A DNA stretch of 64,000 nt from an uncultured delta proteobacterium. GTDB lineage: Bacteria; Desulfobacterota; Binatia; Binatales; Binataceae. The translations under genes were made by a program, and so were the position numbers. The notes beneath the pieces were generated by a model. That model had not been told where the DNA came from. It saw nothing but the letters and a program-made list of their open reading frames with translations, and did not search any database. This document shows positions 783-55,611 of the stretch, one piece after another (position 1 is the first letter of the stretch; the number at the start of each line of letters is the position of its first letter). The stretch lies in NCBI GenBank assembly GCA_963765675.1, contig CAVXXK010000003.1, forward strand, positions 512,001 through 576,000. Direction: 5' to 3'.

Positions 783-928
783 CGCCTGGCGAGTATTTTC
801 GCTCGAAAAATAAATTTTGCGTGGTAACTATATTGATCTAAGTTCAGATGTAGTTTGACACCGGGCAGCGGAGTCCGGCCGGAAAGCGATTGGCGCGGGT
901 TGAAATGTCAACTCACGGGAGGTGCGCG

Positions 929-2275
929 ATGCCTGCAAGAGCTTTCAACCTGTCCGCGAGGGTATTCATCGCGACAGCCACCGGCATAGCGGCAATCGCG
1001 ATCGCTGCCGGGAATGTGGCGCGGGCCACGATGCCGCCGCCGAAACCGGGAGCGTCGGCCGAACCCAAATCGGCAGACCAGACCGGCTTTCCCGCCCTGC
1101 TCTATCAATGGAGCTCGCCGGCCGATAATCCGCAAAGCGCGGCCAAAGTCGCACTGGGCAAGGATCTGTTTTTCGACCCGCGGATCTCGGTGGACAACAC
1201 GGTCGCGTGCGCCAACTGCCACGACCCTGACAAGGGTTTCACCGATCAGTTGCCAACCGCGATGGGCGTGCATGGCAAGTTCGGCCAGCGCAACGCGCCC
1301 ACCGTCCTCGATGCGATGTTCAATATCGAGCAGTTCTGGGACGGGCGCGCGCCGACGCTGGAAGATCAGGCCGGGCAACCGATCCTGAATCCGATCGAGA
1401 TGGGGAACCCGGATCAGCAAACCGTAGTGAACAAGCTCAATTCGATTCCTGACTACCGACAAGGTTTTCAGCAGGTTTTCGGCGCGGCGCCCAGCTACGT
1501 GAACATGGAGCGCGCGATCGCCGCGTACGAGCGCACGCAAATCGCCTTCGACTCGCCGTTCGATCACTTCATGGCGGGAGACGCGAGCGCACTCACCGCG
1601 CAGCAACAGCGCGGATGGGCGATCTTCAACGGGCAGGGACGCTGCATGTCGTGCCACGGATGGAATCCGACCCGGCCAACCTTCACCGACGATCGCTTTC
1701 ACAATATCGGCGTGTCGGCGCACGACGCGCAGTTCGTTCCGCACGCGCGCGAGGCGCTCGCACTGCTTGCCAGCGGTGGCGGAGGCGTGCAGCAGATCGA
1801 TCGGCTCGCGATCTCGACCGACATGAGCCAGCTCGGACGCTTCCTGGTGACCAAACAGCCGCACGATATCGGCTCTTTCAGGACCATGGACCTGCGCAAT
1901 CTGTACGTCACCGAGCCGTACTTCCACGATGGATCGCAGAAGACGATCTGGGACACGCTCGATCACTACAACAAGGGCGGCGTACCCAATCCGTTCCTCG
2001 ACGGCGGGATCACGCCGCTCGGCCTCAGCGAAAAGCAGGAGGACGACCTCGCGGCGTTCCTGCTCTCGCTCACCAGCAAGAGCTACATGGAGCAAGCCAA
2101 GGCCGAGTACGAGCGCCAATTCAAAGAGTCGAGGACCACACGGCCGCAGCGCGACACCGCCGCGGCGATGGGACAGATCGGACGCGACGGTCCGGGCTTC
2201 GCGGGGCCATTTGGGGATATCGGACCGGGCGAGGCCGCGATGCAGGAAAGTCCCGCGCAGCTTGGCGGAGACTGA
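929..2275 (+). CDS. diheme cytochrome c peroxidase superfamily protein, MauG/MbnH/BthA-like
   Basis: Signal peptide; two CxxCH motifs (CANCH, CMSCH); LGKDLFFD, RNAPT, QFWDGRA, PYFHDGS; Tyr in DHYNKGG. GGAGG RBS precedes ATG 929. Confidence 0.9.
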   Translation: MPARAFNLSARVFIATATGIAAIAIAAGNVARATMPPPKPGASAEPKSADQTGFPALLYQWSSPADNPQSAAKVALGKDLFFDPRISVDNTVACANCHDPDKGFTDQLPTAMGVHGKFGQRNAPTVLDAMFNIEQFWDGRAPTLEDQAGQPILNPIEMGNPDQQTVVNKLNSIPDYRQGFQQVFGAAPSYVNMERAIAAYERTQIAFDSPFDHFMAGDASALTAQQQRGWAIFNGQGRCMSCHGWNPTRPTFTDDRFHNIGVSAHDAQFVPHAREALALLASGGGGVQQIDRLAISTDMSQLGRFLVTKQPHDIGSFRTMDLRNLYVTEPYFHDGSQKTIWDTLDHYNKGGVPNPFLDGGITPLGLSEKQEDDLAAFLLSLTSKSYMEQAKAEYERQFKESRTTRPQRDTAAAMGQIGRDGPGFAGPFGDIGPGEAAMQESPAQLGGD

Positions 2276-2328
2276 GGGTACGCGAGTATCGCGCATTCGT
2301 CGTTTCATCGGCGGGAGAGGACAAGACC

Positions 2329-3477
2329 ATGGCAATCCGGCACAAGAGTATCGAGACAAAATTTTACGAAGATCGCGAGCGCGTGATGAAGGCGCTGCGC
2401 AACTGCGACCGGCGCACGTTCCTGAAAATCACCGCCGCAACGATGGGCGCGGTGATGGCCAAGGGCCTGATGCCACCGCATACGTTCCAGCTGGTCGAGG
2501 TCGCCAACGCCGCCGTCACAAAAGGATGGGACAGTGCCGGCGCGCAGGGCGCCCTGCCCTTTCGCTTCGCGTATATCTCGGACGCGCACCTATACGAGCG
2601 GACGCTCAATCAGCGCTTCGTGCGCGCGATCGTCAAGGCGGTCGATGACGTCAACGCGCTCGATCCGCAACCCGACTTCGTACTCTACGGCGGCGACCTG
2701 GCGCAGCTCGGCAGCGCGGCGCAGCTCGAACTCGGCAAGCAAATCTTGAGCGGTCTCAAGGCGCCGGTGAAGATGATGGTCGGCGAGCATGACTGGTTCC
2801 TCGACCTGGGCGTGAAGTGGCAGGAGCTGTTCGGGCCGCCGACTTACTCGTTTGACTGGAAGGGGGTGCACGTCGTGGTCCTGCAGAGCGTGTACGAGAA
2901 CGATTTCTGGACCGCGCGCAAGATGACGCCGGAAGAGCGGATGCAGACCGTCGCCGGTCTTGACAACGGAATCCAGGGGCGCTTCCAGGTCGGCGCGGCG
3001 CAGCGCGAATGGCTCAAGAAAAATCTGGCGAACGTTCCCGTCACCACGCCGATTCTCGTGTTCTCGCACTCGCCGCTCTACAAATATTATCGCAACTGGA
3101 ATTTCTGGACCGAAGACGCCGACCAGGTGCAGGCGATCCTGAAGCCGTACAACAAGGTCACCGTGATCCATGGGCATACGCATCAGATGTTGTTCAATCA
3201 GATCGGAAACATCAGCTTCTACGGGATGCTCTCGACGGCGTGGCCGTGGCCCTACGCACCGGAGGGGTTGCCGCCGCTGACGATCCAGATGAACCGCGCC
3301 GATCCGTTCGATCAGTTCGACGGATGCGGCGACGGCCAGTTCGACGCGCGCGCCGACGGCCTGGTCGATACCATCTACAATTTGTGGGATCGCAATCCGG
3401 TCACGGTGAAGGCGAGTTACCTGACCTCGGGCGGCAAGGTTGATCGTCCGCCCGCGCCGCAGTTTGCGAGCTACTGA
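2329..3477 (+). CDS. Tat-exported calcineurin-like metallophosphoesterase-fold protein
   Basis: DRRTFLK twin-arginine motif; metal motifs DAH, GGDL, GEHD, SH, HGHTH; GGAGAGG RBS before ATG 2329 (3' part of the 1615..3477 ORF). Confidence 0.85.
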   Translation: MAIRHKSIETKFYEDRERVMKALRNCDRRTFLKITAATMGAVMAKGLMPPHTFQLVEVANAAVTKGWDSAGAQGALPFRFAYISDAHLYERTLNQRFVRAIVKAVDDVNALDPQPDFVLYGGDLAQLGSAAQLELGKQILSGLKAPVKMMVGEHDWFLDLGVKWQELFGPPTYSFDWKGVHVVVLQSVYENDFWTARKMTPEERMQTVAGLDNGIQGRFQVGAAQREWLKKNLANVPVTTPILVFSHSPLYKYYRNWNFWTEDADQVQAILKPYNKVTVIHGHTHQMLFNQIGNISFYGMLSTAWPWPYAPEGLPPLTIQMNRADPFDQFDGCGDGQFDARADGLVDTIYNLWDRNPVTVKASYLTSGGKVDRPPAPQFASY

Positions 3478-3483
3478 GAGGGG

Positions 3484-4269
3484 ATGATGAAAGCTCAATC
3501 CAAACTGATTACTACTGCGATACTCAGTGCGCTTGCTGGCGGCGTGATAATCGGCGCATGGACAATTTATCCTCACACTCGCGCGGCTTACGCGCAATCT
3601 GCGCCGACTCATTCAGTGCCACAGGCGACGGCGGGCGGCATCGTCGTCGAGTTATGCGACGGGGTGACTCACACAGAGGTTACCGGCCTCAAGCCCGGGC
3701 AGCCGATGTCACATGCGCAGGCGCTCGCCGTCACCGGCAAGCTGATGGCCGAGTGGCAGCGAAAGCATCCGGACGAGAAATGGCAGATGGCGCAAGCGGG
3801 CGACCAGCCGGCGCCCGGCACGGCGGAGCCCGCGGCGTCTGCCTCCGGCAACGCGTCAAAGAATATCGGCGGCCCCGGGGCGGCGGAACAAGGCGCCAAG
3901 CTCAAGAGCCAGCAGGGCGATACCTACGCGAGCTTTCACGATCGCGATTATAAAGTGTGGAAGGCCGAGACCGACGCCTTCGTCGCGCGCGGCAGTGAGA
4001 TATTCCATTCCAGCAAGTTGCTCGGCAGCACCATCGGCGTGAGCTGCGACATGTGCCATCCCAACGCCGCGAATACTCATCCCGAGACCTACCCGAAGTA
4101 CCAGGAGCAGCTACAAAAAGTCGCGCTGCTGCGCGACATGATCGACTGGTGCATCGAGAATCCGGTCAAGGGCAAGACGCTCGACCCCAACGACCCGAAT
4201 CTGCGCGCGCTCGAAGCGTACATCCTTGCGTCGCGCAAAGGCGTGCCGCTCGACTATGGCAAGCACTGA
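3484..4269 (+). CDS. exported monoheme c-type cytochrome with SoxA/TsdA-like Cys motif
   Basis: N-terminal hydrophobic signal, CDMCH heme motif, downstream LRDMIDWCIENP; 6 bp after the previous stop. Confidence 0.8.
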   Translation: MMKAQSKLITTAILSALAGGVIIGAWTIYPHTRAAYAQSAPTHSVPQATAGGIVVELCDGVTHTEVTGLKPGQPMSHAQALAVTGKLMAEWQRKHPDEKWQMAQAGDQPAPGTAEPAASASGNASKNIGGPGAAEQGAKLKSQQGDTYASFHDRDYKVWKAETDAFVARGSEIFHSSKLLGSTIGVSCDMCHPNAANTHPETYPKYQEQLQKVALLRDMIDWCIENPVKGKTLDPNDPNLRALEAYILASRKGVPLDYGKH

Positions 4270-4290
4270 TCCCGAGTTGACCTCGATACC

Positions 4291-5640
4291 CTATTCCCGC
4301 CGATGGATGCGGCCGTATCGGAACCATTCGATTTCGCCGTCGCGGTTGCGCAGAAATTCGGCTTGCGCGCCGATGAACGGCGGATCGATCGCAGCGACAC
4401 GATCGAGCGCAGTGAACTTGAGCCGCGTCGGCGGGGGCGGCGGTCCTGCCGGCGCGTCGCGCGTCGGAAAGCCGCCGTGGGGAGTGACCTGCATCACCAG
4501 GTGACCGTCGGCAACTTTGAGCTCGACCGCATCGAGAACGGAGTCATAGCGGCCGGCGTATTCGGCAAGCTCAGCCTCCGGTTTCTCGATCGGCGCCGGG
4601 ACCTGAATCTTCGCGTCCAGGAATAGTTCGAGCGCGAGCTTGGTCGTTTCGTTAATCACCAAGGTGCCGCTCCCGGCATTGGTCAGCATCACGAGCGCGA
4701 ATTTACGCTCGGGCGCGATCATGAAGGCCGAGAGCTGGCCGAGCGTTCCGCCGCCGTGAAGCACGAGACGGACGCCGCCCATCTCCTGGATCATCCACGA
4801 CAATCCCATTTTCGTGTCGAGCGCGCCGTCACACACCGGTGTCTGCATCGCCGCCATCGTCTCGGGCGCGAGCACGCGAGTGCCGTCGTCCGCAGTGCCG
4901 TCGCCGAGATGGAACCGCGCGTAGCGAAGCTGGTCCTTCGCCGACGCCGCAATCCCTCCTGCCGGCCACGCCGATCGCGGTATCGGCCAGGGCCTCAGTA
5001 CATATGCCTTGTCCTTGACGACCGCATGGCCGACCGCGAACCGCTTGAGCATCACGAATGAGGGAAAGAAATACGAGCGGTTGAGTCCGAGCGGCTTCAG
5101 CACCAGCTCCAGCATCGCCGCTTCATAGGTCTTGCCAGTCACAGCGGCGATTACGTGTCCCGCCAGAGAGAACGCGGAGTTGTTGTAGGACCATACCGCG
5201 CCCAGCGGCGTGAGCTGAGGAAGCTCCGCCATCTTGCGCACGTAAATCGCAAGCGCGTCGTCGCCATCGCCCGTGTCGTCGAAGAAATCGCCGACCCATC
5301 CGCCGACGTGGGTCAGCAGATGCCGGGTGGTCGCGCGCGCGGTGACTTCCGGATCGCGCACCTCGAAATCGGGCAGGTAGGTGCGAATCGGTTCGTCGAG
5401 ATCGAGCTTGCCCATCTCGACCAGCCGCATGATCGCGGTCGCGGTAAAGGTCTTGGTGGTCGAGCCGATTTGGAACAGCGTGTCGGCATCGACCGGCAGC
5501 GGATTATCGACGCTGGTAACGCCAAGCCCCGCGCTGAATTCCTGCCCGTCCGCGATTACTCCGATCGCGCATCCCGGCAGGAAGTTGCGCTTCATCGAGT
5601 CGGTGGCTCCCGCGACGAGCGCGTCGAATTTTTCCTGCAT
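4291..5640 (-). CDS. serine hydrolase, beta-lactamase/class C family
   Basis: FQIGSTTK (SxxK), YNN, LLTH and HGG motifs. Confidence 0.9.
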   Translation of the reverse strand: MQEKFDALVAGATDSMKRNFLPGCAIGVIADGQEFSAGLGVTSVDNPLPVDADTLFQIGSTTKTFTATAIMRLVEMGKLDLDEPIRTYLPDFEVRDPEVTARATTRHLLTHVGGWVGDFFDDTGDGDDALAIYVRKMAELPQLTPLGAVWSYNNSAFSLAGHVIAAVTGKTYEAAMLELVLKPLGLNRSYFFPSFVMLKRFAVGHAVVKDKAYVLRPWPIPRSAWPAGGIAASAKDQLRYARFHLGDGTADDGTRVLAPETMAAMQTPVCDGALDTKMGLSWMIQEMGGVRLVLHGGGTLGQLSAFMIAPERKFALVMLTNAGSGTLVINETTKLALELFLDAKIQVPAPIEKPEAELAEYAGRYDSVLDAVELKVADGHLVMQVTPHGGFPTRDAPAGPPPPPTRLKFTALDRVAAIDPPFIGAQAEFLRNRDGEIEWFRYGRIHRRE

Positions 5641-7802: not shown

Positions 7803-8987
7803 ATGGATTTCAATTACAGCGCTGAAGACGAGAACTTCCGCACCGAATTCCGCGCGTGGCTCGAAGCGAACAAGCAGTTCGCACCGCATCGCGCCGAAGT
7901 GATGGGCGATGAAGGCGGCAGCGGATGGGACGCGCAAGTGCGCTGGGCCAAAAAACTCAGCGAGGGACGCTGGCTCGCCGTCAATTGGCCCAAGGAATAC
8001 GGCGGGCGCAGCCTGAGCGTGATGCAGACGATCATCTACAACGAGGAGCTCGCGCGCGCGGGGCTCGCCGCGCCGATGATCGGAATGGGCATCAGCCTGC
8101 TCGGGCCGACGCTGATTCATTGGGGCACCGACGAGCAGAAGCAGCAACATATTCCGAAGATCCTGAAGGCCGAGGAAATCTGGTGCCAGGGATATTCGGA
8201 GCCCGGCTCGGGCTCGGACCTCGCGTCGCTGCAGACCCGCGCGGTCGAAGACGGCGACGACTACGTCGTCAACGGGCAGAAGGTATGGACCTCGGCGGCG
8301 CAGCACGCGGACTGGATTTTCCTGCTGACGCGGACCGATCCCGCAGCGCCGAAGCACAAGGGTATCAGCTATCTGCTGGTCGATATGAAATCTCCGGGAG
8401 TGACCGTGCGTCCACTGGTGCAGATCACCGGCGGCCGCGGTTTCAACGAAGTTTTTTTCGAAGACGTGCGCGTGCCGAAGAAAAATCTGGTCGGCGAGAA
8501 GAACGCCGGATGGCAGGTCGCGATCACGACGCTGATGTTCGAGCGATCGGGCGGCGGCGGAGATCGCGGCGCGATGTTCCAGGTGCGCGAGCTGGTCAAT
8601 CTTGCCAAGAAGCTTCCGCGCGATGGGAAGACCGCGTGGGACGACGCCGGCGTGCGCCAGAAAATCTCAGAGTTCGCGTGCGAGGCTTACGCGCTCAAGT
8701 ACACCGGCTATCGGCAGCTCACGCGGCGGCTCAAGGGGATGCCGCCGGGACCGGAGGGCTCGATGATGAAGCTGTGCGGCACGGAGCTTAATCTGCGCAT
8801 GCAGCTCTTTGCGATGGAGCTGCTCGGGCCGTACTCGCAATTCGAGTATCACGCGCCGATGGCTATCGATCACGGCAAGTGGTCATTCCGGATGCTCGCG
8901 GCGCGCGGCGGTACAATCGCGGCCGGTACCAATCAGATTCAGCACAATATAATCGGCGAACGCGTCCTCGGCCTGCCAAAGGGTTGA
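7803..8987 (+). CDS. acyl-CoA dehydrogenase (FadE26/29/30-like), paralog 1
   Basis: WPKEYGG, WCQGYSEPGSGSDLASL, NGQKVWTS, FNEVFFEDVRVP, TLMFER, NIIGERVLGLP. Confidence 0.95.
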   Translation: MDFNYSAEDENFRTEFRAWLEANKQFAPHRAEVMGDEGGSGWDAQVRWAKKLSEGRWLAVNWPKEYGGRSLSVMQTIIYNEELARAGLAAPMIGMGISLLGPTLIHWGTDEQKQQHIPKILKAEEIWCQGYSEPGSGSDLASLQTRAVEDGDDYVVNGQKVWTSAAQHADWIFLLTRTDPAAPKHKGISYLLVDMKSPGVTVRPLVQITGGRGFNEVFFEDVRVPKKNLVGEKNAGWQVAITTLMFERSGGGGDRGAMFQVRELVNLAKKLPRDGKTAWDDAGVRQKISEFACEAYALKYTGYRQLTRRLKGMPPGPEGSMMKLCGTELNLRMQLFAMELLGPYSQFEYHAPMAIDHGKWSFRMLAARGGTIAAGTNQIQHNIIGERVLGLPKG

Positions 8988-9034
8988 GACCTCGCTGGGT
9001 TGCAGGAAGACTGCATCAAGAGGAATGATCACGC

Positions 9035-10219
9035 ATGGATTTCAATTACACGCCTGAAGACGAAGCCTTTCGCAGCGAGTTGCGCACCTGGCTCGAAGCC
9101 AACAAAAAGTTCGCTCCCGCGCCGAGCAATATCATGGCCAACGAGGGCGAAGGCGAGTGGGAAGCGCGCGTGCGCTGGCATAAGAAGCTCAACGAGGGCG
9201 GCTGGGTGGCGGTCAATTGGCCCAAGCAGTACGGCGGACGCGGAGCCAGCGTGATGCAGCGGCTCATCTTTCGCGAGGAGCTTTCGCGCCTGGGCCTCAA
9301 CGAACCGTTCATCGGCATGGGCATCAGCCTGCTCGGCCCGACGCTGATGCATTGGGGAACCGAAGCGCAGAAACAGAATCATCTGCCGAAAATCCAGAAG
9401 GGCGAAGAAGTCTGGTGCCAAGGCTATTCCGAACCGGGCGCGGGCTCCGACCTTGCCGGATTGCAGACGCGCGCGGTCGAGGACGGCGACGACTTCGTCG
9501 TCAACGGACAGAAAGTGTGGACCTCGATGGCGCAGCATGCGGACATGATTTTCCTGCTGGTGCGCACCGATCCCTCCGCGCCGAAGCATAAGGGGATCAG
9601 CTACCTGCTGGTCGATATGCATAGCCCCGGAATCACGGTGCGTCCGCTGGTCCAAATCACCGGCGGCAAGGGGTTCAACGAAGTATTTTTCGAAGACGTG
9701 CGCGTGCCGCGCAAGAATATCGTCGGCGAGCTGAACAACGGATGGCAAGTCGCGATGACCACGCTGATGTTCGAGCGCGGCGGTGGCGGCGGCGAAAACG
9801 CGCTCGGCGAGGTTCAGGAGCTGGTCGATCTGGCCAAGCGGCTTCCGCGTAACGGCGCAACCGCGTGGGACGATTCGAGCGTGCGCCAGAAAGCGGCGGA
9901 GTTCGCGGCCGACGCCCTCGCGCTCAAGTACACCGGCTATCGCCAGTTGACGCGCCAGCTAAAGGGGATGCCGCCGGGGCCGGAAGGCTCGATGATGAAG
10001 CTGTGCAGCACCGAGCTCGGACTGCGCATCGCGCTGTTTGCGATGGAACTCCTCGGGCCGTACAGCCAGCTCGAGTTCGGCGCGCCGTTCTCGGTCGACA
10101 AGGGCAAGTGGTCATTCCGGATGTTGTCCGCGCGCGGACCGACAATCTACGCCGGCACCAATCAGATCCAGCACAACATCATCGGCGAGCGAGTGCTCGG
10201 GCTGCCGAAGGGATCGTAA
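9035..10219 (+). CDS. acyl-CoA dehydrogenase, paralog 2
   Basis: Same motif set as paralog 1; tandem duplicate. Confidence 0.95.
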   Translation: MDFNYTPEDEAFRSELRTWLEANKKFAPAPSNIMANEGEGEWEARVRWHKKLNEGGWVAVNWPKQYGGRGASVMQRLIFREELSRLGLNEPFIGMGISLLGPTLMHWGTEAQKQNHLPKIQKGEEVWCQGYSEPGAGSDLAGLQTRAVEDGDDFVVNGQKVWTSMAQHADMIFLLVRTDPSAPKHKGISYLLVDMHSPGITVRPLVQITGGKGFNEVFFEDVRVPRKNIVGELNNGWQVAMTTLMFERGGGGGENALGEVQELVDLAKRLPRNGATAWDDSSVRQKAAEFAADALALKYTGYRQLTRQLKGMPPGPEGSMMKLCSTELGLRIALFAMELLGPYSQLEFGAPFSVDKGKWSFRMLSARGPTIYAGTNQIQHNIIGERVLGLPKGS

Positions 10220-10243
10220 GCTAGTTCGATTTGAGAAGATTTC

Positions 10244-10268
10244 GGGCGGTCTTTGGACCGCCCTTTTT
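10244..10268 (+). terminator. intrinsic terminator
   Basis: GGGCGGTC-TTTG-GACCGCCC followed by TTTTT, just after the ACAD stop. Confidence 0.75.
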
Positions 10269-10309
10269 GCCGGACGCTCGGCGCAAGCGCGAAATCTTCG
10301 TTCCCTCTT

Positions 10310-11638
10310 CTACACCGCGCTGGCGAGGGAGCCAGGCGCGATCGCCGATGCGATATCGCGCGCGAGGCGCGGAGCATCTTCGACCGCGAGCGCCGCGACC
10401 GTCGCGCGGATTCCCGGCGCGGCGCGAATCCGGAAGCGCTCACCCGCACGGAGCGCCCACTTTGACGCGGCAAGCGACTGGATTGCGCCCGATTCGTCCT
10501 GCACCGGAATCCATACGTTCAAGCCCGAGCGTCCCTGCGCCTTGATTCCATGCTCCGCGAGCGCGTCGATCAACGCATGGCGGCGCTCGCTATAGGTATC
10601 GGCGGCGCGGCGGACCAGCTTCGTGATCTTCGGGTCGGACCACATCACGGCGAGCAGTTCCTGCAGCACGTGACTGACCCATCGCGGGCCGAGCCGCTGC
10701 ATCCCTTCGACGCGCGCGATTGTCAGCGCGTCTCCGGTGGCAAAGGCGATTCTCAAATCGGGACCGAGCGCTTTGGAGACCGAGCGGATAACCGCCCACC
10801 GTTCGCGCCGCGGATCGATCGCGGAAACCGCGGGCACGCCGGAGACCGCGCCGGCGAAATCGTCCTCGACGATCAGCACCTCGGGGTGGCCAGCGAGTAT
10901 CTCCGCGAGTTCGCGCGCGCGGCGGCGGTCAAACGCGGCGCCGGTAGGGTTCTGCGCGCGCGGCGTGAGGACCATCGCCTGCGCGCCCGCGCGCAGCGCA
11001 GCCGCAACCGCGGCGGGCGTGGCCCCGAACTCGTCCATCGCAATCGGCTCGGCAACGTAGCCGAGTGCTGCGATCAAATCGAGCGTGCCACTGTAGCTCG
11101 GATCCTCGACTCCGACGATATCGCCCGGGCGCAGATGGGCCGCGAGAATCCGCTCGAGCGCGTCCATCGCGCCGCTCAAGATCGCGATCGCCTTCGCGCC
11201 GATCCCGTCAGCCGCGAATTGCCGCGCCGCAATGCGCAGCAGATCGGCGCGATTCGCTTCGCCGCCATAGAGCAACTGCCCGCCTTCAATTCGCGCGAGC
11301 GCGTCCTTGAGCGACGGAAGCATCGCGGGGTCGGGGTTCCCGTTGGCGAGGTCGCGCACTCCCGCCGGCGTTGCCGGAGCCGACGGTATCGCCAGCGCGG
11401 GCCGGTGGTTGACCGCCGTGCCGCGCCTGCCGCTGCCGCGCACGAGGCCGCGCACGCGCAGAGTTTGGTAGGCGGCGGCCACGGTGGTGGGGCTGACGCC
11501 GAGGCGGTTCGCGAGCCCGCGGATGGGCGGCAAACGGTCGTTGACTTTCAGGCGTCCGGCGCGAATCGCGTCCTCGACGCTGGCGGCGATCTGGTTGCCT
11601 GATTTTCCTTTGATCTGATAATGTACTGATACGTTCAT
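10310..11638 (-). CDS. MocR/GntR family regulator (wHTH + PLP aminotransferase domain)
   Basis: LPPIRGLANRLGVSPTTVAAAY HTH; GNPD, QNPTG, EDDF, SVSKALGPDLR. Confidence 0.93.
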   Translation of the reverse strand: MNVSVHYQIKGKSGNQIAASVEDAIRAGRLKVNDRLPPIRGLANRLGVSPTTVAAAYQTLRVRGLVRGSGRRGTAVNHRPALAIPSAPATPAGVRDLANGNPDPAMLPSLKDALARIEGGQLLYGGEANRADLLRIAARQFAADGIGAKAIAILSGAMDALERILAAHLRPGDIVGVEDPSYSGTLDLIAALGYVAEPIAMDEFGATPAAVAAALRAGAQAMVLTPRAQNPTGAAFDRRRARELAEILAGHPEVLIVEDDFAGAVSGVPAVSAIDPRRERWAVIRSVSKALGPDLRIAFATGDALTIARVEGMQRLGPRWVSHVLQELLAVMWSDPKITKLVRRAADTYSERRHALIDALAEHGIKAQGRSGLNVWIPVQDESGAIQSLAASKWALRAGERFRIRAAPGIRATVAALAVEDAPRLARDIASAIAPGSLASAV

Positions 11639-11666
11639 TAGTTTGTACTGTTACATATTATACAAA
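11622..11666. promoter_or_regulatory. putative MocR operator (direct plus inverted repeats)
   Basis: TGTACTGWTAC at 11622 and 11644 (22 bp apart); TTTGTA (11642) / TACAAA (11661) inverted; sits at a 39-bp divergent gap. Confidence 0.6.
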
Positions 11667-11677
11667 GGAACCCGGAA

Positions 11678-12331
11678 ATGGAAGAGCCGCGCCGCACGCC
11701 CCGAACCACCGTCAAACGGATGGCCAAACGCGCCGCCTACGACCTCGAGGTTATCCACTCGATCCTCGACCGAGCACTGGTCTGCCACGTAGGCTTCGTC
11801 GCCGGCGGCGCTCCTTCGGTCCTGCCGACACTGCATGCGCGGATCGAGGATCGCCTGTTCCTGCACGGCTCGGCCGCAAGCCACATGCTCCGCACCGCAG
11901 CCGAAGGCGCCGAGATCTGCGTGACCGTGACTATGATTGACGGGCTGGTGCTCGCGCGCTCCGCGTTTCATCATTCGGTAAATTACCGCTCTGCCGTGAT
12001 CTTCGGCCGTGCCCAGCGGGTCGATGATCGAGAACGCAAGCTCGCCGCGATGCGCGCGCTGGTCGAGCACGTCGCACCCGGAAGATGGGCCGGCACGCGC
12101 GCACCCAACGAGAAGGAAATCAGTGGTACACTCATTTTGGAATTGCCGATCGAAGAGACCTCGGCAAAGATTCGCACCGGCGGTCCGATCGATGACGAGG
12201 CCGACTATGCTCTGCCGTTCTGGGCCGGCGTGATTCCCCTGACGCTCGCCGCATCGACCCCGATCGCCGATCCGCGGATGGACCGCTCGATTGAAATGCC
12301 GTCGGCACGTCTTCGAATACCGCACGCCTGA
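11678..12331 (+). CDS. pyridoxamine 5'-phosphate oxidase-like flavin-binding protein (probably N-terminal half of a fusion with the next GNAT)
   Basis: RAAYD, CHVGF, LHGS, DGLVLARSAFHHSVNYRS, SAKIRTGGP, WAGVIP. Confidence 0.9.
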   Translation: MEEPRRTPRTTVKRMAKRAAYDLEVIHSILDRALVCHVGFVAGGAPSVLPTLHARIEDRLFLHGSAASHMLRTAAEGAEICVTVTMIDGLVLARSAFHHSVNYRSAVIFGRAQRVDDRERKLAAMRALVEHVAPGRWAGTRAPNEKEISGTLILELPIEETSAKIRTGGPIDDEADYALPFWAGVIPLTLAASTPIADPRMDRSIEMPSARLRIPHA

Positions 12332-12368
12332 CGAGCGCGCTCTCGGTCTCGCCCACGACGGCGCGCCG

Positions 12369-12821
12369 TTGGAGCAGCGTGTCGGCGAATTTCTGATTAC
12401 AACCGACGTCTCTCGACTCGACCTTAACGTGATCCACCGGTTCCTGACCGGCAGCTATTGGGCCGCCGAGATTCCGCGCGAGGTCGTCGCGCGGGCGCTC
12501 AAGAACTCGCTCTGCTTCGGTCTCTATGACGGCGATGCGCAAATCGGTCTCGCGCGAGTGGTGACGGACTATGCGACCTTCGCGTACGTCGCCGACGTGT
12601 TCGTGCTCGAGGAGTATCGCGGACGCGGACTCTCGAAAGCCCTGATGACGGCCGTGCTCGCGCATCCTCATCTGCAAGGACTGCGGCGCTGGACGCTGGC
12701 GACGCGCGACGCGCACGGACTCTATCGCAAGTTCGGATTCGAGACGCCGCGCTTGCCCGATCGCCAGATGGAACGGGCGGACCTGGAGGTTTATCGGCGC
12801 AGATCGGCGGGCGCCAAGTAG
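12369..12821 (+). CDS. GNAT family N-acetyltransferase
   Basis: SYWA, SLCFGLY, ARVVTDYATFAYVADVFV, RGRGLSK, LATRDAHGLYRKFGF. Start uncertain (possible fusion). Confidence 0.88.
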   Translation: MEQRVGEFLITTDVSRLDLNVIHRFLTGSYWAAEIPREVVARALKNSLCFGLYDGDAQIGLARVVTDYATFAYVADVFVLEEYRGRGLSKALMTAVLAHPHLQGLRRWTLATRDAHGLYRKFGFETPRLPDRQMERADLEVYRRRSAGAK

Positions 12822-12849
12822 CCTCGTCGATTGATGGAAGGAGGAAGAA

Positions 12850-13518
12850 ATGTACATTCCGAAACCCTTCGAGATAACCGAGACGCGCACACTGCACGAA
12901 TTTATCCAGGCGCACAGCTTCGCCACGATCGTGTCGAACAGTGCGGATGACATGCTCGCTTCGCACGTTCCACTGGCGCTCAATCATGCCGGCGGCGCAA
13001 ATGCGTCGCTCGCCGGCCACTTTGCGCGCGCAAACCAGCATTGGCGCGCACTCGAGCGAAGTGGACAGTGCCTCGTGATTTTCGGCGGGCCGCATTCGTA
13101 TATCTCGCCCAGCTGGTACGCGAATTCTCCCGCGGTACCGACCTGGAACTACGCCGCGGTGCATGTGTATGGAAAGATGAGGATCATAGACGATGCCGCG
13201 TGGGTGGCCGGTCTGCTTGACCGGATGATCGCGATCTACGAAGCGCCGCAAGCGCGGCCGTGGCCCGGACTCCTGCCGGTGGAGTTCCGCGCCAAGCTCA
13301 CCGAAGCGATCGTGGGCTTCGAGATTCAGATCGATCGAATCGAGGGCAAGTTCAAGCTCGGGCAGAATCGCCCACTCGAAGATCAGCGTGGCGCCCTGCG
13401 CGAGCTCGAGCGCAGCGGCGACGCGGCGGCGCGAGAACTCGCTTCGATGGTGCGGCGGCATCTGGGAATTGCCGCTGGCGACGGTGATCATCGCGCAGAG
13501 ATCGGCACGGCGAAATGA
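12850..13518 (+). CDS. FMN-binding negative transcriptional regulator, PaiB family
   Basis: MYIPKPF, GHFARANQHW, YISPSWY, VPTWNYAAVHVYG, GKFKLGQNR. Confidence 0.92.
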   Translation: MYIPKPFEITETRTLHEFIQAHSFATIVSNSADDMLASHVPLALNHAGGANASLAGHFARANQHWRALERSGQCLVIFGGPHSYISPSWYANSPAVPTWNYAAVHVYGKMRIIDDAAWVAGLLDRMIAIYEAPQARPWPGLLPVEFRAKLTEAIVGFEIQIDRIEGKFKLGQNRPLEDQRGALRELERSGDAAARELASMVRRHLGIAAGDGDHRAEIGTAK

Positions 13519-13675
13519 CTTTTCGCGGCGGCGGCGCGCCGTCGGGCGATTTGCCGTAGCTTGCGCCGCTTTCAGCGCGAGGCTTATATAACATCCGTTA
13601 GGTCCTTAACCGGCCGACGCCGCTCGCGCGGCCAGGTTACGATTCGCTGGGACCGCGATCGGAGGTCTTCATCAG

Positions 13676-14875
13676 ATGGATTTCAAATTCAGCGCCGAGG
13701 ATGAGTCGTTCCGCCAGACACTGCGCTCGTGGCTCAAAGCCAACGCGCCCAAGCGCGAGCACAGTCCTGATGAGGACCTCGGTCCGATGAGCGAGTCGGG
13801 CGGCGACGACTGGAAGCATCGGTTGCAATGGCACAAGAAGATGCACGAGGGCGGCTGGGTCGGAATCAGTTGGCCAAAGGAATACGGCGGGCGCGGCGCA
13901 ACCATCACACAGCAGCTCATCTACAACGAGGAGATGAACAAGGCCAACACGCCGCAGCTCGTCAACGGACTCGGCATCATGTTGGTCGGTCCCACCCTGA
14001 TCCACTGGGGCACCGAAGAACAGAAGAAGCGCTACGTTCCGAAGATCCTGTCGGGCGAGGAAATCTGGTGCCAGGGCTATTCTGAGCCGGGCTCGGGCTC
14101 CGACGTCGCGTCGCTGCAGACTAAAGCCGTCGAAGAGGGTGACTACTTTATCGTCAACGGCCAGAAGGTCTGGACTTCCGACGCGCATCACGCGGATTAC
14201 TGCATCCTGCTGACCCGCACCGATCCGAGCGCGCCCAAGCACAAGGGAATCAGCTATATCATCGTCGATATGCACTCGCCCGGCGTGACCGTTCGTCCGC
14301 TGGTGCAGATCACGGGCGACGCGAATTTCAACGAAGTGTTTTTCGAGGACGTAAAAGTCCCGAAGAAAAACCTGGTCGGCGAAAAGAACCAGGGATGGCA
14401 GGTCGCGATCACCACGCTGATGTTCGAGCGGTCCGGAATCGGCGGCGGACGCGACATGCTCGGCGAGGTGAAGGATCTCGCGCATCTCGCGCGCGCGGTG
14501 CAACTGAACGGCCGCAGCGCGTGGGAGCATTCGAGCGTCCGGCAGAAGATCGGCGCATTCGCGTCGGAGGCGCTCGGGCTCAAATACACCGGCTATCGCC
14601 AACTGACGCGGCGGCTCAAGGGACTTCCGCCGGGCCCGGAAGGATCGGTGCTCAAGCTCGGCGCCAGCGAGCTTAATCTAAAGATGAACAAGTTCGCGAT
14701 GGAGTTGCTCGGGCCCTACTCGCAGATGGAGTTCAAGGCGCCGTTCGCGGTCGACAAGGGCAAGTGGTCGTACCGGATGCTGGCGTCGCGCGCACTGACT
14801 ATCGCCGGCGGCACCAGTGAGATTCAGCATAATATCATAGGCGAACGCGTTCTGGGGCTGCCCAAAGGTTATTGA
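13676..14875 (+). CDS. acyl-CoA dehydrogenase, paralog 3
   Basis: Same motif set as paralogs 1 and 2; ends IAGGTSEIQHNIIGERVLGLP. Confidence 0.95.
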   Translation: MDFKFSAEDESFRQTLRSWLKANAPKREHSPDEDLGPMSESGGDDWKHRLQWHKKMHEGGWVGISWPKEYGGRGATITQQLIYNEEMNKANTPQLVNGLGIMLVGPTLIHWGTEEQKKRYVPKILSGEEIWCQGYSEPGSGSDVASLQTKAVEEGDYFIVNGQKVWTSDAHHADYCILLTRTDPSAPKHKGISYIIVDMHSPGVTVRPLVQITGDANFNEVFFEDVKVPKKNLVGEKNQGWQVAITTLMFERSGIGGGRDMLGEVKDLAHLARAVQLNGRSAWEHSSVRQKIGAFASEALGLKYTGYRQLTRRLKGLPPGPEGSVLKLGASELNLKMNKFAMELLGPYSQMEFKAPFAVDKGKWSYRMLASRALTIAGGTSEIQHNIIGERVLGLPKGY

Positions 14876-52487: not shown

Positions 52488-53585
52488 TCAGAGATTGCGG
52501 CGGTAGGTGACAAAATTTCCCGAGATATGCGCGCCCAGGCTCTCCGCCGTTCGGCGCGAGGCCCAGTTGTCGTCGAGCACGAGAGTGTAGCCGGCGTAGC
52601 GCATCCGCTGCTCCGCCATCTTGAGGTACGAGCGCGACGCCATCGCAGTTGCGATTCCGCGGCCGCGCGCGCTTTCCTTCACGCCGATATTGATCAGCGC
52701 GCCGCGCGTGCCGCCGCCGCGATGCGGCTCCAGGCGGACGCCGCGCCTGACCTGCGCGAGCATCGGACTCAAATCCGGCACCGAGAACACCGCGCCGACC
52801 GCTTCATCGTCAATCTCGGCCAGCATCGAAAGGTCGGCCGCCGGGCTTTCCCACAGCGACATCAGCATCGGGCGCACTTCCGTCTTGGTGACGGGATTCC
52901 ATCCCCAATGACGCGCGAAAGCGGCATTAGTCACTTCGGTCCAGGCGTCGATCGCGGCAAGAAATCCGAACTCGCGCCAGCTCTTGATCGTGACGCCTGC
53001 CGCGGCGGCTGCCGCAACCGATCGGCGATAGCGCTCGAGCAGCTCGGGACTCAACTCGGCTGTGTAATCGGTCTGCCCTTTCTCCGTTTCGAAGCCCGCG
53101 CGTTTGAAGCATCGATGGTAATACGGCGGATTGCCGCGGAGCAGAAAGGAAGGCAGCCGCCCGTATCCGTCGACGGCGTATGGATAATCAAGGAACGCGG
53201 CGAAGCCGCTGCGCGCCGCTTTCATCCCGCGTGCGCCGAGAGACTCCGCCGCGGCTTCGAGCATCGCAACGGCGGCATCCTCTTCGCCCTCGTAGGCTTC
53301 AAAATGGATTAGCTGTCCGAGCTGCTCGCCCCAGTGTTCGATATAGCGGCGATTAACGACCGCACTGACCCGCGCGACCATCCGCCCGCGCCGGCGCGCG
53401 CAAAATGCTTCCAGATCGAGGTAGGCCGCGAAATGCGTGCGGCGCGTGATCATGTCGATCTCGCTCTGAATATCGGGCGGCCACCATGCTTCGCGCGCCG
53501 CGTAAACATGATACGGCAGGCGCGCAAATTCCTCGCATCCATCGCGCGTGGCAACGCGCTCGATCGTTATCCCCGTGCCGTTCAT
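52488..53585 (-). CDS. tandem-GNAT-fold protein (YghO-like)
   Basis: EFARLPYHVY..WWPP, NPPYY, AFARHWG, IGVKESARGRGIA, VLDDN. Confidence 0.75.
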   Translation of the reverse strand: MNGTGITIERVATRDGCEEFARLPYHVYAAREAWWPPDIQSEIDMITRRTHFAAYLDLEAFCARRRGRMVARVSAVVNRRYIEHWGEQLGQLIHFEAYEGEEDAAVAMLEAAAESLGARGMKAARSGFAAFLDYPYAVDGYGRLPSFLLRGNPPYYHRCFKRAGFETEKGQTDYTAELSPELLERYRRSVAAAAAAGVTIKSWREFGFLAAIDAWTEVTNAAFARHWGWNPVTKTEVRPMLMSLWESPAADLSMLAEIDDEAVGAVFSVPDLSPMLAQVRRGVRLEPHRGGGTRGALINIGVKESARGRGIATAMASRSYLKMAEQRMRYAGYTLVLDDNWASRRTAESLGAHISGNFVTYRRNL

Positions 53586-54457
53586 GAATCTCGCGCGGTG
53601 CGTCGGCGCCCCCGCGCGTCAAGCTTAGCACCGGTGCGCGCAGAATGAGCATCGGCGACAATCCCGTCGCGCAGCCATCGCGCGAGCATCGCATTGATCG
53701 CGGCAACCGGATCATGCTCCGGTGTCTTGCCGGCGAAGGCCGCGCAGATTGCGCCGAATGTCGCGCCGCGCCGAAGCTTCGCGATCGCACGCGCTTCGCA
53801 AGCGTCCAGCTCGCGAAAAAGGACTTTCGCCTCGCGCCGCCAAACCAGGATCGTGCTCAGACCTCGCGCGGGCGCCTTGAGCTTTCTTCCGGCCACGAAC
53901 GTGCGCAGTGCGAGCGCGACTTGCCACTGCGTTTCGAGCACCTGCAATGCCGCGATCGCACGCATCCGTACGCTCGTCCACGCTTCGGGCGTGATCGCGC
54001 GCATCGTTTCGGCGTCGAGAGGCACAGTATCGCGAGCGCAGAAGACCTCGACGATCGCGCGCTCGAGCGCGGCAAGATCCGCGATATAAGGATACTCGCG
54101 GCGAATCGGATGCATACGCAGACAATCTGCGAGATATTTCCCCACCCAGAACACCGACGCCTCAGTTGGCGGATACTCAGTCAGATATCCAGTCACGAGA
54201 TTGTGAAAATTGTCTTCTCCGAGCGCCGCGGCGACCGCCGGGAAATCCTCTTTGAGGACCTCCAACAGGCGAAAGAAGTACATATTGGCGTAGATATCCA
54301 GTCGCTCGACGGCCGTCATGCGCGGATCGCCGCCGATCACCGCGTCGAGTCCGCCGCGCGCAACGCCGCGCTCGTGCTCGAGACCTTCCGCTACGCCGCC
54401 GGGCACCGCGATAAGCCGATAGAGGAGAGCTTGAGTGTTCTTAAGCTGGAGCGGCAT
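53582..54457 (-). CDS. DUF2063 MNIO partner protein (BufC/HvfC-like)
   Basis: ERLDIYANMYFFRLLEVLKEDFP, LGEDNF, DLAALE; directly follows the DUF692 gene. Confidence 0.88.
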   Translation of the reverse strand: MPLQLKNTQALLYRLIAVPGGVAEGLEHERGVARGGLDAVIGGDPRMTAVERLDIYANMYFFRLLEVLKEDFPAVAAALGEDNFHNLVTGYLTEYPPTEASVFWVGKYLADCLRMHPIRREYPYIADLAALERAIVEVFCARDTVPLDAETMRAITPEAWTSVRMRAIAALQVLETQWQVALALRTFVAGRKLKAPARGLSTILVWRREAKVLFRELDACEARAIAKLRRGATFGAICAAFAGKTPEHDPVAAINAMLARWLRDGIVADAHSARTGAKLDARGRRRTARDS

Positions 54458-55304
54458 GAATCGTCGCGGATTTGGTATGCGCGGATTCGTAGATACGACG
54501 CGCACGCTCAGCGGCGGCGGCCAGCACCGGGAACGCCGGGATGTTATCGTCCCATTCGATCAAGGTTGATACCGCGCCGAAGCGGCGAACCGCGCGCTCG
54601 TATAGCATCCACACCTCATCGCGGATCGGATAGTCATGCGTGTCGAGCAGGTAGTCGCCGTGGTCACTGTGGCCGGCGAGATGAAATTGCACGACCCGCT
54701 CGGACGGTATCGAGTCAATATACACTTCAGCGCGGAAGCGATGGTTGAATGCATTTACAAATATATTGTTGATATCGAGCAGAATTCCGCAGTCGGCTTC
54801 CTCGGCGACCGCGCGGATGAATTCCCACTCGGTCATCGTCGAGTCGCGAAACGTAAGATAGCGCGACACGTTCTCGATCAGTATGTAGCGACCCAGGATG
54901 TCCTGCACTCGGCGGATTCGCGCGGCTACGTGGCGCACCGTTTCCTCGTTATGCGGAAGCGGCAGCAGGTCGTGCAGGCGATGCCCGCCCACGCCGCTCC
55001 AGCATAGATGGTCCGATATCCATGCGGGCGGGGTGCGGCGGGCGAGGGCGCGCAGGCCGCGAAGATATGGGAGATCAAGCGGGTCGGTCGAGCCGATCGA
55101 CATCGACACTCCGTGCATCACGACCGGGTAGTGCGCGCACACGGCGTCGAGGACCTCGAGCGGACGGCCGCCGGCAACCATGAAGTTTTCCGAAATGACT
55201 TCGAACCAGTCGATCGCGGGATGTCGCTTCAGAATATGCACATAATGCGGCCGGCGCAGACCAACCCCGAAGCCCAGAAACGGAAAATCCTCGCGCTGAA
55301 ACAT
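54441..55304 (-). CDS. DUF692 multinuclear non-heme iron oxidative enzyme (MNIO, BufB-like)
   Basis: GVGLRRPH, EVISENF, HGVSMSIG, SDHLCW, DLLPLP, ENVS, LLDINN, HLAGH, DTHD, EWD. Confidence 0.95.
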   Translation of the reverse strand: MFQREDFPFLGFGVGLRRPHYVHILKRHPAIDWFEVISENFMVAGGRPLEVLDAVCAHYPVVMHGVSMSIGSTDPLDLPYLRGLRALARRTPPAWISDHLCWSGVGGHRLHDLLPLPHNEETVRHVAARIRRVQDILGRYILIENVSRYLTFRDSTMTEWEFIRAVAEEADCGILLDINNIFVNAFNHRFRAEVYIDSIPSERVVQFHLAGHSDHGDYLLDTHDYPIRDEVWMLYERAVRRFGAVSTLIEWDDNIPAFPVLAAAAERARRIYESAHTKSATIHAAPA

Positions 55305-55338
55305 AAAGCCAAGCCGGCTACACGACGTCGAGCGAGTT

Positions 55339-55611
55339 CTAGTCCGCCTTGGCGGCGTGGCCACCCTGCTTCACGCACTGCTGCGCGCTCGAAGTCATCA
55401 CGTAGCCTTTGCCCTTACAGGAGTTCTGACCAGCGCATCCGCTCGAGGCGGTTTTGCACGCGCTCTGGCCCTTGCACGCATTGCCGCCTACGCATTTCAC
55501 TTGCGCCGGCGCCGTTCCCGATCCAGCGCTGTCGGCCGCCATCGCGCTGCCGGTGAACATCAAGGCGACGGCGGTCGCGAGCATCGCACCGCCCAATGCT
55601 GATTTTCTCAT
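55339..55611 (-). CDS. bufferin-type (BufA2-like) 6-Cys RiPP precursor with Sec signal peptide
   Basis: Signal ending AMA; core CVGGNACKGQSAC...CAGQNSCKGKG...CVKQGG; AGGAG RBS; directly upstream of DUF692. Confidence 0.88.
   Translation of the reverse strand: MRKSALGGAMLATAVALMFTGSAMAADSAGSGTAPAQVKCVGGNACKGQSACKTASSGCAGQNSCKGKGYVMTSSAQQCVKQGGHAAKAD

Follow-up and report, generated by a model that had tools for sequence, protein, structure and literature searches.

What do three exported proteins do together whose genes stand side by side, always in the same order and with no flanking gene in common? The question is raised by positions 929-4269 of a stretch of 64,000 nucleotides from an uncultured delta proteobacterium of the class Binatia (contig CAVXXK010000003.1, positions 512,001 to 576,000), which is here called the window. 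The region consists of three co-oriented genes, all on the (+) strand, which encode a diheme enzyme of the bacterial cytochrome c peroxidase (bCcP)/MauG superfamily, a protein of the metallophosphoesterase (MPE) fold and a SoxA/TsdA-type cytochrome. The three genes are one strictly conserved operon, and the constant core of the wider family is the MPE with the cytochrome, not the diheme enzyme with the MPE. Our reading, which is tentative, is that the operon encodes an oxidative module of the periplasm and that the MPE would be oxidised there by the diheme enzyme.

A three-gene operon conserved in several phyla

A scan of species-representative genomes gave 339 relatives among 600 candidate stretches; the triad counts given here refer to the best 80. 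The triad is found in fixed order in 80 out of 80 loci, which belong to Binatia, many genera of Myxococcota, one Terriglobia metagenome-assembled genome (MAG), Methylocystis and alphaproteobacterial MAGs. Culturable hosts are Myxococcus, Corallococcus, Cystobacter and Methylocystis. Because the identical trio recurs in identical order in all of these loci, the three genes are real genes and no chance open reading frames (ORFs). Compared with the window proteins, the MPEs of these loci are 64-97% identical, the diheme enzymes 46-93% and the cytochromes 41-93%. The flanking genes are not common to the loci, i.e. the neighbours seen in the window recur in at most 3 of the 80. The diheme gene, on the other hand, is directly upstream of the MPE gene in every one of them, and likewise in 32 out of 32 main-clade rows of the MPE tree described below that have enough flanking sequence.

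The first-pass annotation of this DNA had placed here three co-oriented genes with two CxxCH motifs, the segment QFWDGRA, a Tyr at codon 1967, a twin-arginine motif and a Trp-Pro-Trp (WPW) motif at 3241-3249, and every coordinate was correct. The linkage of the three genes and the conservation of WPW, on which its interpretation hung, both held up in the survey (80/80 loci and 81/81 MPE sequences, respectively). Of 41 related genomes, counting the window's own, 22 contain a match to the MPE, which in 19 is a full-length orthologue; these 19 all keep the triad order, with one locus (L008) cut by the contig end. One of the 19 genomes (G010, locus L005) is unpublished, and no claim made here depends on it alone. 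More distant MPE paralogues without WPW (G018, G022, G023 and G044) have no c-type cytochrome neighbours.

The spacing between the genes in the window is 53 nt (diheme to MPE) and 6 nt (MPE to cytochrome), and an alternative TTG start of the diheme gene is present at 890. Scanning for promoters and terminators gave nothing informative. For positions 800-4400 no RNA data set was listed, and small shares of this part were seen in DNA runs from soil and peat. The next commonest neighbour is a bacterioferritin-like gene just upstream of the triad (19 out of 81 main-clade loci, L041-L059 and others), which is absent from the window.

The three proteins

The diheme protein matches the Pfam family CCP_MauG (PF03150; E 5.5e-58, 196.3 bits against a cut-off of 25.6), which places it in the bCcP/MauG superfamily. 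Two residues assign it, by prediction, to the MauG-like class of His/Tyr diheme enzymes, i.e. Y347 at the position of MauG Tyr294 and the inter-heme Trp, W137. In an alignment of 10 rows, which included MauG encoded between mauJ and mauM (Paracoccus versutus mau cluster) and an annotated MbnH adjoining MbnP (L193), the Y347 column is Tyr in all 10 rows, these two among them. Among solved structures the best match over the full length is PDB 6e1c (E 4.9e-41), whose DIYSEGG Tyr also pairs with Y347 and which we take to be MbnH; a literature search gave no confirmation of this identity. In the numbering of the MauG chain, the end points of the match put Y347 at residue 294 and, judged in the same way, H98 at residue 35. 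Residues 336-360 of the window protein are free of Met. The Met of Pseudomonas aeruginosa cytochrome c peroxidase (CcP) lands on Y347 in a gapless count from PYFH, and on G350, three positions off, in the gapped HMMER alignment. The His/Met electron-transfer heme of canonical detoxifying bCcPs thus appears to be lacking, nor is there conservation of the loop His that activation-dependent CcPs have (H in 46 out of 81 orthologues). These observations bear out the earlier assignment of the enzyme to the MauG/MbnH type. The best NCBIfam match is MbnH (TIGR04039) at 220.5 bits, below the cut-off of 362.85, and MauG (TIGR03791) scores 199.3 bits, below 443.85. Since both scores are under the cut-offs, the protein is, on its sequence, MauG-like in kind, yet it belongs to neither the MauG nor the MbnH family.

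The low-complexity C-terminal tail of the diheme protein carries a nearly invariant motif of the pattern R-P-x-R-D-T...A-x-G, which may be a docking motif. A complex prediction for diheme residues 55-420, MPE residues 70-382 and two hemes gave ipSAE values of 0.00 and 0.00 and is uninformative either way. Besides the diheme gene of the triad, no other CCP_MauG gene was found in the window's genome (95.6% complete), and no match to an MbnP-like gene (TIGR04052) was found in that genome.

The second protein matches Metallophos (PF00149; E 5.7e-14, 53.4 bits against a cut-off of 21.5) with all five motifs present. All seven dimetal ligand positions are occupied, with Glu for Asn at one of them, so that motif III reads GEHD; this Glu, E153, is at least 90% conserved in the wider Tat-MPE family (alignment A3). 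The ligand residues, GEHD, WPW and the whole segment LSTAWPWPYAP are invariant in 81 out of 81 MPE sequences. An AlphaFold2 (AF2) model from a deep alignment has a pLDDT of 84.1, with values above 90 across most of the mature domain; it supersedes an earlier model from orthologues only (pLDDT 68.5, WPW loop below 50). The top Foldseek matches of the model are GpdQ (3d03, E 2.5e-14), Rv0805, purple acid phosphatases and SMPDL3, and SoxB is not among the best 50 matches listed. The MPE has no 5_nucleotid_C domain and matches no SoxB model at E ≤0.1, i.e. the features of a SoxB thiosulfohydrolase were not found. The model of the cAMP phosphodiesterase CpdA/GpdQ group (NF008359) gives 36.5 bits against a cut-off of 225, and the database names of the protein are generic (Icc, CpdA, metallophosphoesterase).

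H283 and H285 of the MPE align with His195 and His197 of GpdQ. W305, between GHxH and P-Y, aligns gaplessly with GpdQ His217, which we take to be a substrate-binding His; no paper on GpdQ His217 was found in the literature search. The protein has 11 Trp, of which W164, W194, W257, W305, W307 and W353 are invariant in both the main and the sister clade. Because GEHD and WPW are invariant, W305 stands at the His217 position and six of the 11 Trp never change, it seems unlikely that the MPE is an ordinary hydrolase. At the N terminus, the twin-arginine motif DRRTFLK is followed by the hydrophobic stretch ITAATMGAVMA, and the Pfam TAT_signal model scores 17.1 bits, under its cut-off of 22.7. The conserved extension of 26 residues ahead of this motif, which is not present in the sister clade, could be a chaperone-binding leader.

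The third protein matches SoxA-TsdA_cyt-c (PF21342; E 2.6e-09, 37.4 bits against a cut-off of 27), and its score for SoxA proper (TIGR04484) is 33.5 bits against 110. It begins with a hydrophobic segment that is an anchor or a signal, which is followed by a small N-domain with conserved residues, a linker of low complexity and the heme domain. C223, the predicted axial ligand, aligns with position 114 of the SoxA chain 1h31_A, a Cys that is presumably the heme ligand there. In the main clade the N-terminal mini-domain (3610-3800) has H43, G52, LCDG with C58, W91, P96 and W100 conserved. No family match to the N-domain was found in Pfam, and an ESM Atlas search gave no usable match; metal binding or the carrying of a substrate might be its role. 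In the sister clade the cytochromes are short and do not have the domain.

The wider family and its sulfur-oxidation context

The MPE family comprises 4817 clusters (90% identity) at E ≤1e-10, and a search of 1.84 billion representatives gave 2126 MPE relatives at E ≤1e-3. The relatives share the twin-arginine translocation (Tat) motif, the Glu in motif III and often TAWPxP, whereas only the closer clades have the second Trp. In some distant Tat-MPE relatives the protein is joined to a cupredoxin domain (P0223, P0251) or a Rieske 2Fe-2S domain (P0228). A metagenome scan seeded with intermediate relatives added 23 main-clade and 57 sister-clade loci; these contigs show adjacency only, and a diheme gene could sit elsewhere in those genomes.

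In the MPE tree the main clade, to which the window belongs, has 52 rows (SH-aLRT 98), and all 32 rows with enough flank carry the diheme and the cytochrome genes. The sister clade has 47 rows (SH-aLRT 99), and 29 of the 31 with enough flank have the cytochrome but no adjacent diheme gene. Its MPEs are 35-48% identical to the window MPE and keep TSWPWP and GEHD. Altogether 61 MPE positions are invariant in the two clades, among them all ligands, W305-P-W307-P-Y309, W164, W194, W257 and W353. A short SoxA-type cytochrome gene follows the MPE gene in 50 out of 57 sister loci, and the remaining 7 end about 350 nt or less past the MPE. Downstream of the cytochrome gene stands an Lcl_C/DUF1566 gene in 42 out of 57 sister loci (L109-L165), and therefore the sister clade has a three-gene module of its own.

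The two sister rows that have both a diheme and a cytochrome gene are L132, the earliest branch of the sister clade, and L109. Both diheme proteins have Tyr at the ligand position. In the diheme tree (26 rows) the L109 protein pairs with MauG (100/99) and the L132 protein with a Thiothrix protein (100/97), both outside the main-clade dihemes. Because the two belong to unrelated Tyr-type lineages, the tree suggests that a Tyr-type diheme was recruited to the MPE more than once; given the long branches and unresolved backbone of this tree, repeated recruitment is put forward as a suggestion. The Thiothrix plasmid in question (L199:1-1868) has two tandem genes annotated as cytochrome c peroxidase beside the gene for an arsenate reductase (azurin) small subunit, and one of the two products is the nearest relative of the L132 diheme protein.

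The third clade with WPW is found on pSymA-type plasmids of Sinorhizobium meliloti, where MPE relatives of 46-47% identity occur in 35 records. They are part of a three-gene operon, the products of which are a protein with a CarboxypepD_reg domain, the MPE, which carries ATSWPWPYAPEG and GEHD, and a cytochrome of the SoxA type. The upstream gene (L192:8080-8799) encodes an exported protein with C-x2-H-x2-M, like short type-1 copper loops, and SCO1 is nearby. A cupredoxin identity of this protein (P0274) could not be confirmed, as Pfam gave CarboxypepD_reg only, NCBIfam nothing relevant, and BLASTP against the cupredoxin-fused MPEs no significant match.

No partner of the MPE is more constant than the cytochrome, which occurs in each of the three clades with WPW. 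The first-pass annotation had named the third gene as redox partner; the gene is no mere accessory.

A sulfur-oxidation context, which the first-pass annotation did not mention, is seen in the related clades. Among the 57 sister loci we counted SoxY in 16, SoxZ in 15, LysR in 21, HiPIP in 11, flavocytochrome c sulfide dehydrogenase (FCSD) in 7 and PufC, the reaction-centre cytochrome, in 7, with confirmation by Pfam. Divergent from the S. meliloti pSymA operon are genes for SoxY and SoxZ, for a c-type cytochrome and for the flavoprotein of sulfide dehydrogenase (FCSD). In one sister locus (L116) a protein of 562 residues with a 5'-nucleotidase C-terminal domain is encoded beside SoxZ and coexists with the sister-clade MPE. 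We read it as a putative canonical SoxB from its domain and position. Literature searches for SoxYZ together with a metallophosphoesterase, and for SoxY together with a calcineurin-like protein and a cytochrome, found nothing relevant.

Possible functions of the module

Several known systems resemble parts of the triad. MauG shares with the window diheme the two CxxCH motifs, the inter-heme Trp and the Tyr at the Tyr294 position, and its substrate, pre-methylamine dehydrogenase, is encoded in the same mau cluster; the two enzymes are only about 37% identical, and there are no mau genes with the triad or anywhere in the window. MbnH has the same-column Tyr and adjoins a Trp-rich exported partner, MbnP, in which a Trp of the WxW motif becomes kynurenine (PMC11951088). 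MbnP is a copper-binding protein, whereas the partner in the window has a dimetal MPE fold, and the WPW of the triad is conserved even without an adjacent diheme gene. In BthA/PhosA of Burkholderia thailandensis, the gene for a His/Tyr diheme from the MauG branch adjoins that for an exported MPE-fold protein. According to passages of PMC6405878, BthA "always" adjoins the putative purple acid phosphatase PhosA, and its authors suggest that BthA oxidises PhosA. The earlier statement that no system of this composition has been characterised is true, although a His/Tyr diheme paired with a putative purple acid phosphatase was already in print. BthA is distant from the window diheme (PDB 6nx0, E 7.8e-17, versus E 4.9e-41 for 6e1c). 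The passages on PhosA describe a purple acid phosphatase at the outer membrane's external face and mention no SoxA-type cytochrome, whereas the window MPE is putatively Tat-exported and GpdQ-like, although purple acid phosphatases are among its structural matches; PhosA was compared by description only. Literature searches for purple acid phosphatase with diheme and Burkholderia, and for MauG with metallophosphoesterase, found nothing relevant.

The core pair has its own likenesses. As in the Sox system (SoxAX, SoxB, SoxYZ), a His/Cys heme protein of the SoxA fold goes together with a Tat-exported dimetal enzyme of the MPE fold, the export being predicted in the triad, and SoxYZ adjoins the MPE operon in the sister and Sinorhizobium clades. 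SoxB has a 5'-nucleotidase C-domain, which the window MPE is without, and the triad cytochrome is monoheme with no SoxX seen. TsdA, the thiosulfate dehydrogenase, likewise has the SoxA/TsdA domain with a Cys ligand; it is diheme and works alone, whereas the window cytochrome has one heme domain and an unrelated N-domain and is always paired with the MPE. GpdQ and Rv0805, the phosphodiesterase-type MPEs of class III, are the closest solved folds and sequences, and all their seven metal-ligand positions are filled in the window MPE. The identity is nevertheless about 16-17%, and the window protein differs from them in the Asn to Glu change of motif III, the Trp at the His217 position, the putative Tat signal, an extra C-terminal region and its obligate heme-protein neighbours.

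We propose a reduced sulfur substrate of the sulfane or thiol type, on which the MPE-fold protein would act jointly with the His/Cys heme, i.e. that the core is probably an oxidative enzyme pair acting on reduced sulfur species. The diheme of the window's clade would be the oxidant of the module. Its bis-Fe(IV) state could arise by reaction with H2O2, or with O2 once the low-potential His/Cys heme has reduced the enzyme, and would withdraw electrons from the MPE over a distance. This would most likely serve the maturation of the MPE by oxidation of an active-site aromatic residue, for which W305 and W307 are the best candidates, and the outcome would be a redox-active or altered metal site in the MPE. 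We lean towards maturation, with considerable doubt, because of the precedent (MauG, MbnH and BthA-PhosA), the strict adjacency to the MPE gene and the apparent repeated recruitment of Tyr-type dihemes. Both His/Tyr members of known function act on a protein from the same gene cluster, and the cupredoxin and Rieske fusions of distant MPEs also speak for a redox coupling of the family.

Several observations weigh against this proposal. WPW and all other invariant aromatics are equally conserved where there is no adjacent diheme gene, as in the 29 sister rows and in Sinorhizobium; therefore WPW cannot be claimed as "the" target. The pairing of the enzyme with WPW, as first suggested, thus stands as far as linkage and conservation of the motif are concerned, but not in the sense that WPW tracks the diheme gene. 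The match of W305 to GpdQ His217 lies in a segment that scores weakly (0.7 bits), and the role of that His is presumed. Furthermore, SoxY, SoxZ, HiPIP and FCSD occur in 0 out of 103 main-clade loci, and SoxY was found neither in the window's genome (95.6% complete) nor in 4 of the 5 other main-clade genomes tested.

The main rival, to which we give somewhat less weight, is that nothing is covalently modified and that the diheme is an electron sink: the MPE and the cytochrome would oxidise their substrate catalytically, with the diheme as terminal acceptor to H2O2 or O2, replacing in non-lithotrophic soil bacteria the HiPIP, cupredoxin or Rieske carriers of the relatives. The repeated ties of the family to one-electron carriers (the cupredoxin and Rieske fusions and the HiPIP genes of 11 out of 57 sister loci) fit this well, as do the other exported protein in the slot upstream of the Sinorhizobium MPE, the independence of WPW conservation from an adjacent diheme gene and the lack of a second CCP_MauG gene in the window's genome. 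On the same side, BthA, also a His/Tyr enzyme, turns over H2O2 when given an electron donor, according to passages of PMC6405878. The Sinorhizobium upstream protein, however, was not confirmable as a cupredoxin, and a sink explains neither the Tyr ligand, which every diheme found beside the MPE family has, nor the strict adjacency to the MPE gene, because a peroxidase needs just a small electron donor. We know of no established detoxifying CcP with Tyr ligation. The passages of PMC6405878 are consistent with this. If the substrate of the diheme is a protein, it could also be the cytochrome, in which the enzyme would modify or cross-link W222-C223 by the heme or act on the Cys58 N-domain. The cytochrome is likewise exported and in the same operon, its W-C pair is kept in 78 out of 78 orthologues, and the LCDG domain (C58 in 78/81) occurs in the clade that always has the diheme. 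We consider this improbable, as L109 and L132 have a diheme while their cytochromes are short and have no N-domain, sister-clade and Sinorhizobium cytochromes encoded away from any adjacent diheme gene have the W-C pair too, and the diheme gene always abuts the MPE gene and never the cytochrome gene.

Little probability can be given, too, to an ordinary periplasmic phosphodiesterase (for phosphate scavenging or cyclic nucleotides) whose Fe-containing dimetal site is kept mixed-valence or protected from peroxide by the heme proteins. Purple acid phosphatases, which are redox-regulated, stand with GpdQ and Rv0805 as the closest solved folds, the nearest NCBIfam models are cAMP phosphodiesterases, albeit far under the cut-off, and the database names point the same way. 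But motif III has Glu for Asn, a Trp replaces the His presumed to bind the substrate in GpdQ, the related clades lie in sulfur-oxidation and not phosphate loci, and no pho-type genes are near the triad. Finally, that three unrelated exported proteins are neighbours by inherited synteny only is very improbable: their order is the same in all 80 loci over several phyla with no flanking gene in common, and the MPE gene stays together with the cytochrome gene throughout three clades whose neighbours are otherwise different.

Returning to the maturation of the MPE by the diheme, a broader and more doubtful extension is that the WPW-type Tat-exported MPEs are a new class of redox enzymes and not hydrolases. 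With a redox-active dimetal site or a Trp-derived cofactor they might oxidise sulfur compounds together with their His/Cys heme partner, linked to SoxYZ in Proteobacteria and driven in the window's clade by a bis-Fe(IV) diheme with peroxide as acceptor. There are only two His/Tyr diheme enzymes with a known protein substrate, and the operon is a third candidate pair that is widespread and well defined. With SoxYZ and sulfide dehydrogenase as neighbours, the MPE and its His/Cys cytochrome point to an undescribed component of bacterial sulfur oxidation, and this sulfur-linked pair occurs in the genetically tractable S. meliloti. The cupredoxin and Rieske fusions suggest that electron carriers are the working partners of an entire branch within the "phosphoesterase" superfamily; if so, thousands of "Icc/CpdA" annotations would have to be reread.

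Features of the region and other genes of the window

The positions of the three genes and of their motifs are collected in Table 1.

Table 1. Features of the three-gene region in window coordinates. Fractions are counts over the ungapped rows of up to 81 orthologous sequences.
Feature	Position	Strand	Basis or conservation
Diheme enzyme gene, bCcP/MauG superfamily, Sec-type signal peptide	929..2275	+	448 residues from ATG at 929; Pfam CCP_MauG
First heme motif CANCH, C94-H98	1208..1222	+	C94, C97, H98 kept 79/79
Inter-heme Trp W137 in QFWDGRA	1337..1339	+	kept 79/79
Second heme motif CMSCH, C239-H243	1643..1657	+	kept 80/80
Tyr347 in DHYNKGG after PYFHDG, predicted sixth ligand of second heme (MauG Tyr294 position)	1967..1969	+	alignment; kept 78/78
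Motif Q397, R405, P406, R408, A413, G415 in low-complexity C-terminal tail of diheme	2117..2173	+	nearly invariant, alignment A6 (31 sequences)
MPE gene, putatively Tat-exported, GpdQ/Rv0805 type	2329..3477	+	382 residues; Pfam Metallophos, AF2 model, Foldseek
Conserved 26-residue N-terminal extension of MPE ahead of twin-arginine motif	2329..2406	+	S7, E9, T10, R16 invariant in alignment A1 (35 orthologues)
Twin-arginine motif DRRTFLK	2407..2427	+	R28, R29 invariant in main and sister MPE clades
MPE motif I, D85-A-H87, metal ligands	2581..2589	+	D85, H87 kept 81/81
MPE motif II, G122-D123, bridging Asp	2692..2697	+	kept 81/81
MPE motif III, GEHD, Glu153 replacing metal-binding Asn of GNHD	2782..2793	+	kept 81/81
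MPE motif IV, His247 (SHS)	3067..3069	+	kept 81/81
MPE motif V, G-H283-T-H285	3172..3183	+	H283, T284, H285 kept 81/81; G282 80/81
W305-P306-W307 in LSTAWPWPYAP	3241..3249	+	kept 81/81; invariant in sister clade too
Monoheme SoxA/TsdA-type cytochrome gene	3484..4269	+	261 residues; Pfam SoxA-TsdA_cyt-c
Conserved N-domain stretch His43 to Cys58 (LCDG)	3610..3657	+	C58 kept 78/81
Heme motif CDMCH	4045..4059	+	kept 79/79
W222-C223, C223 predicted Cys axial ligand	4147..4152	+	kept 78/78

Two further groups of genes were seen elsewhere in the window. Three paralogous acyl-CoA dehydrogenase genes lie at 7803-14872 (7803-8984, 9035-10216 and 13676-14872), with GNAT, FMN-binding and GntR-aminotransferase genes interspersed among them. 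About 50 kb from the triad, on the (-) strand at 53585-55611, a gene of the MbnB/TglH/ChrH family (DUF692; 54444-55364, E 6.2e-109) is accompanied by a DUF2063 gene (53585-54505) and an ORF of 90 residues (55342-55611), and the group looks like a small cluster for peptide modification of the type that makes peptides synthesised by the ribosome and modified after translation (RiPPs).

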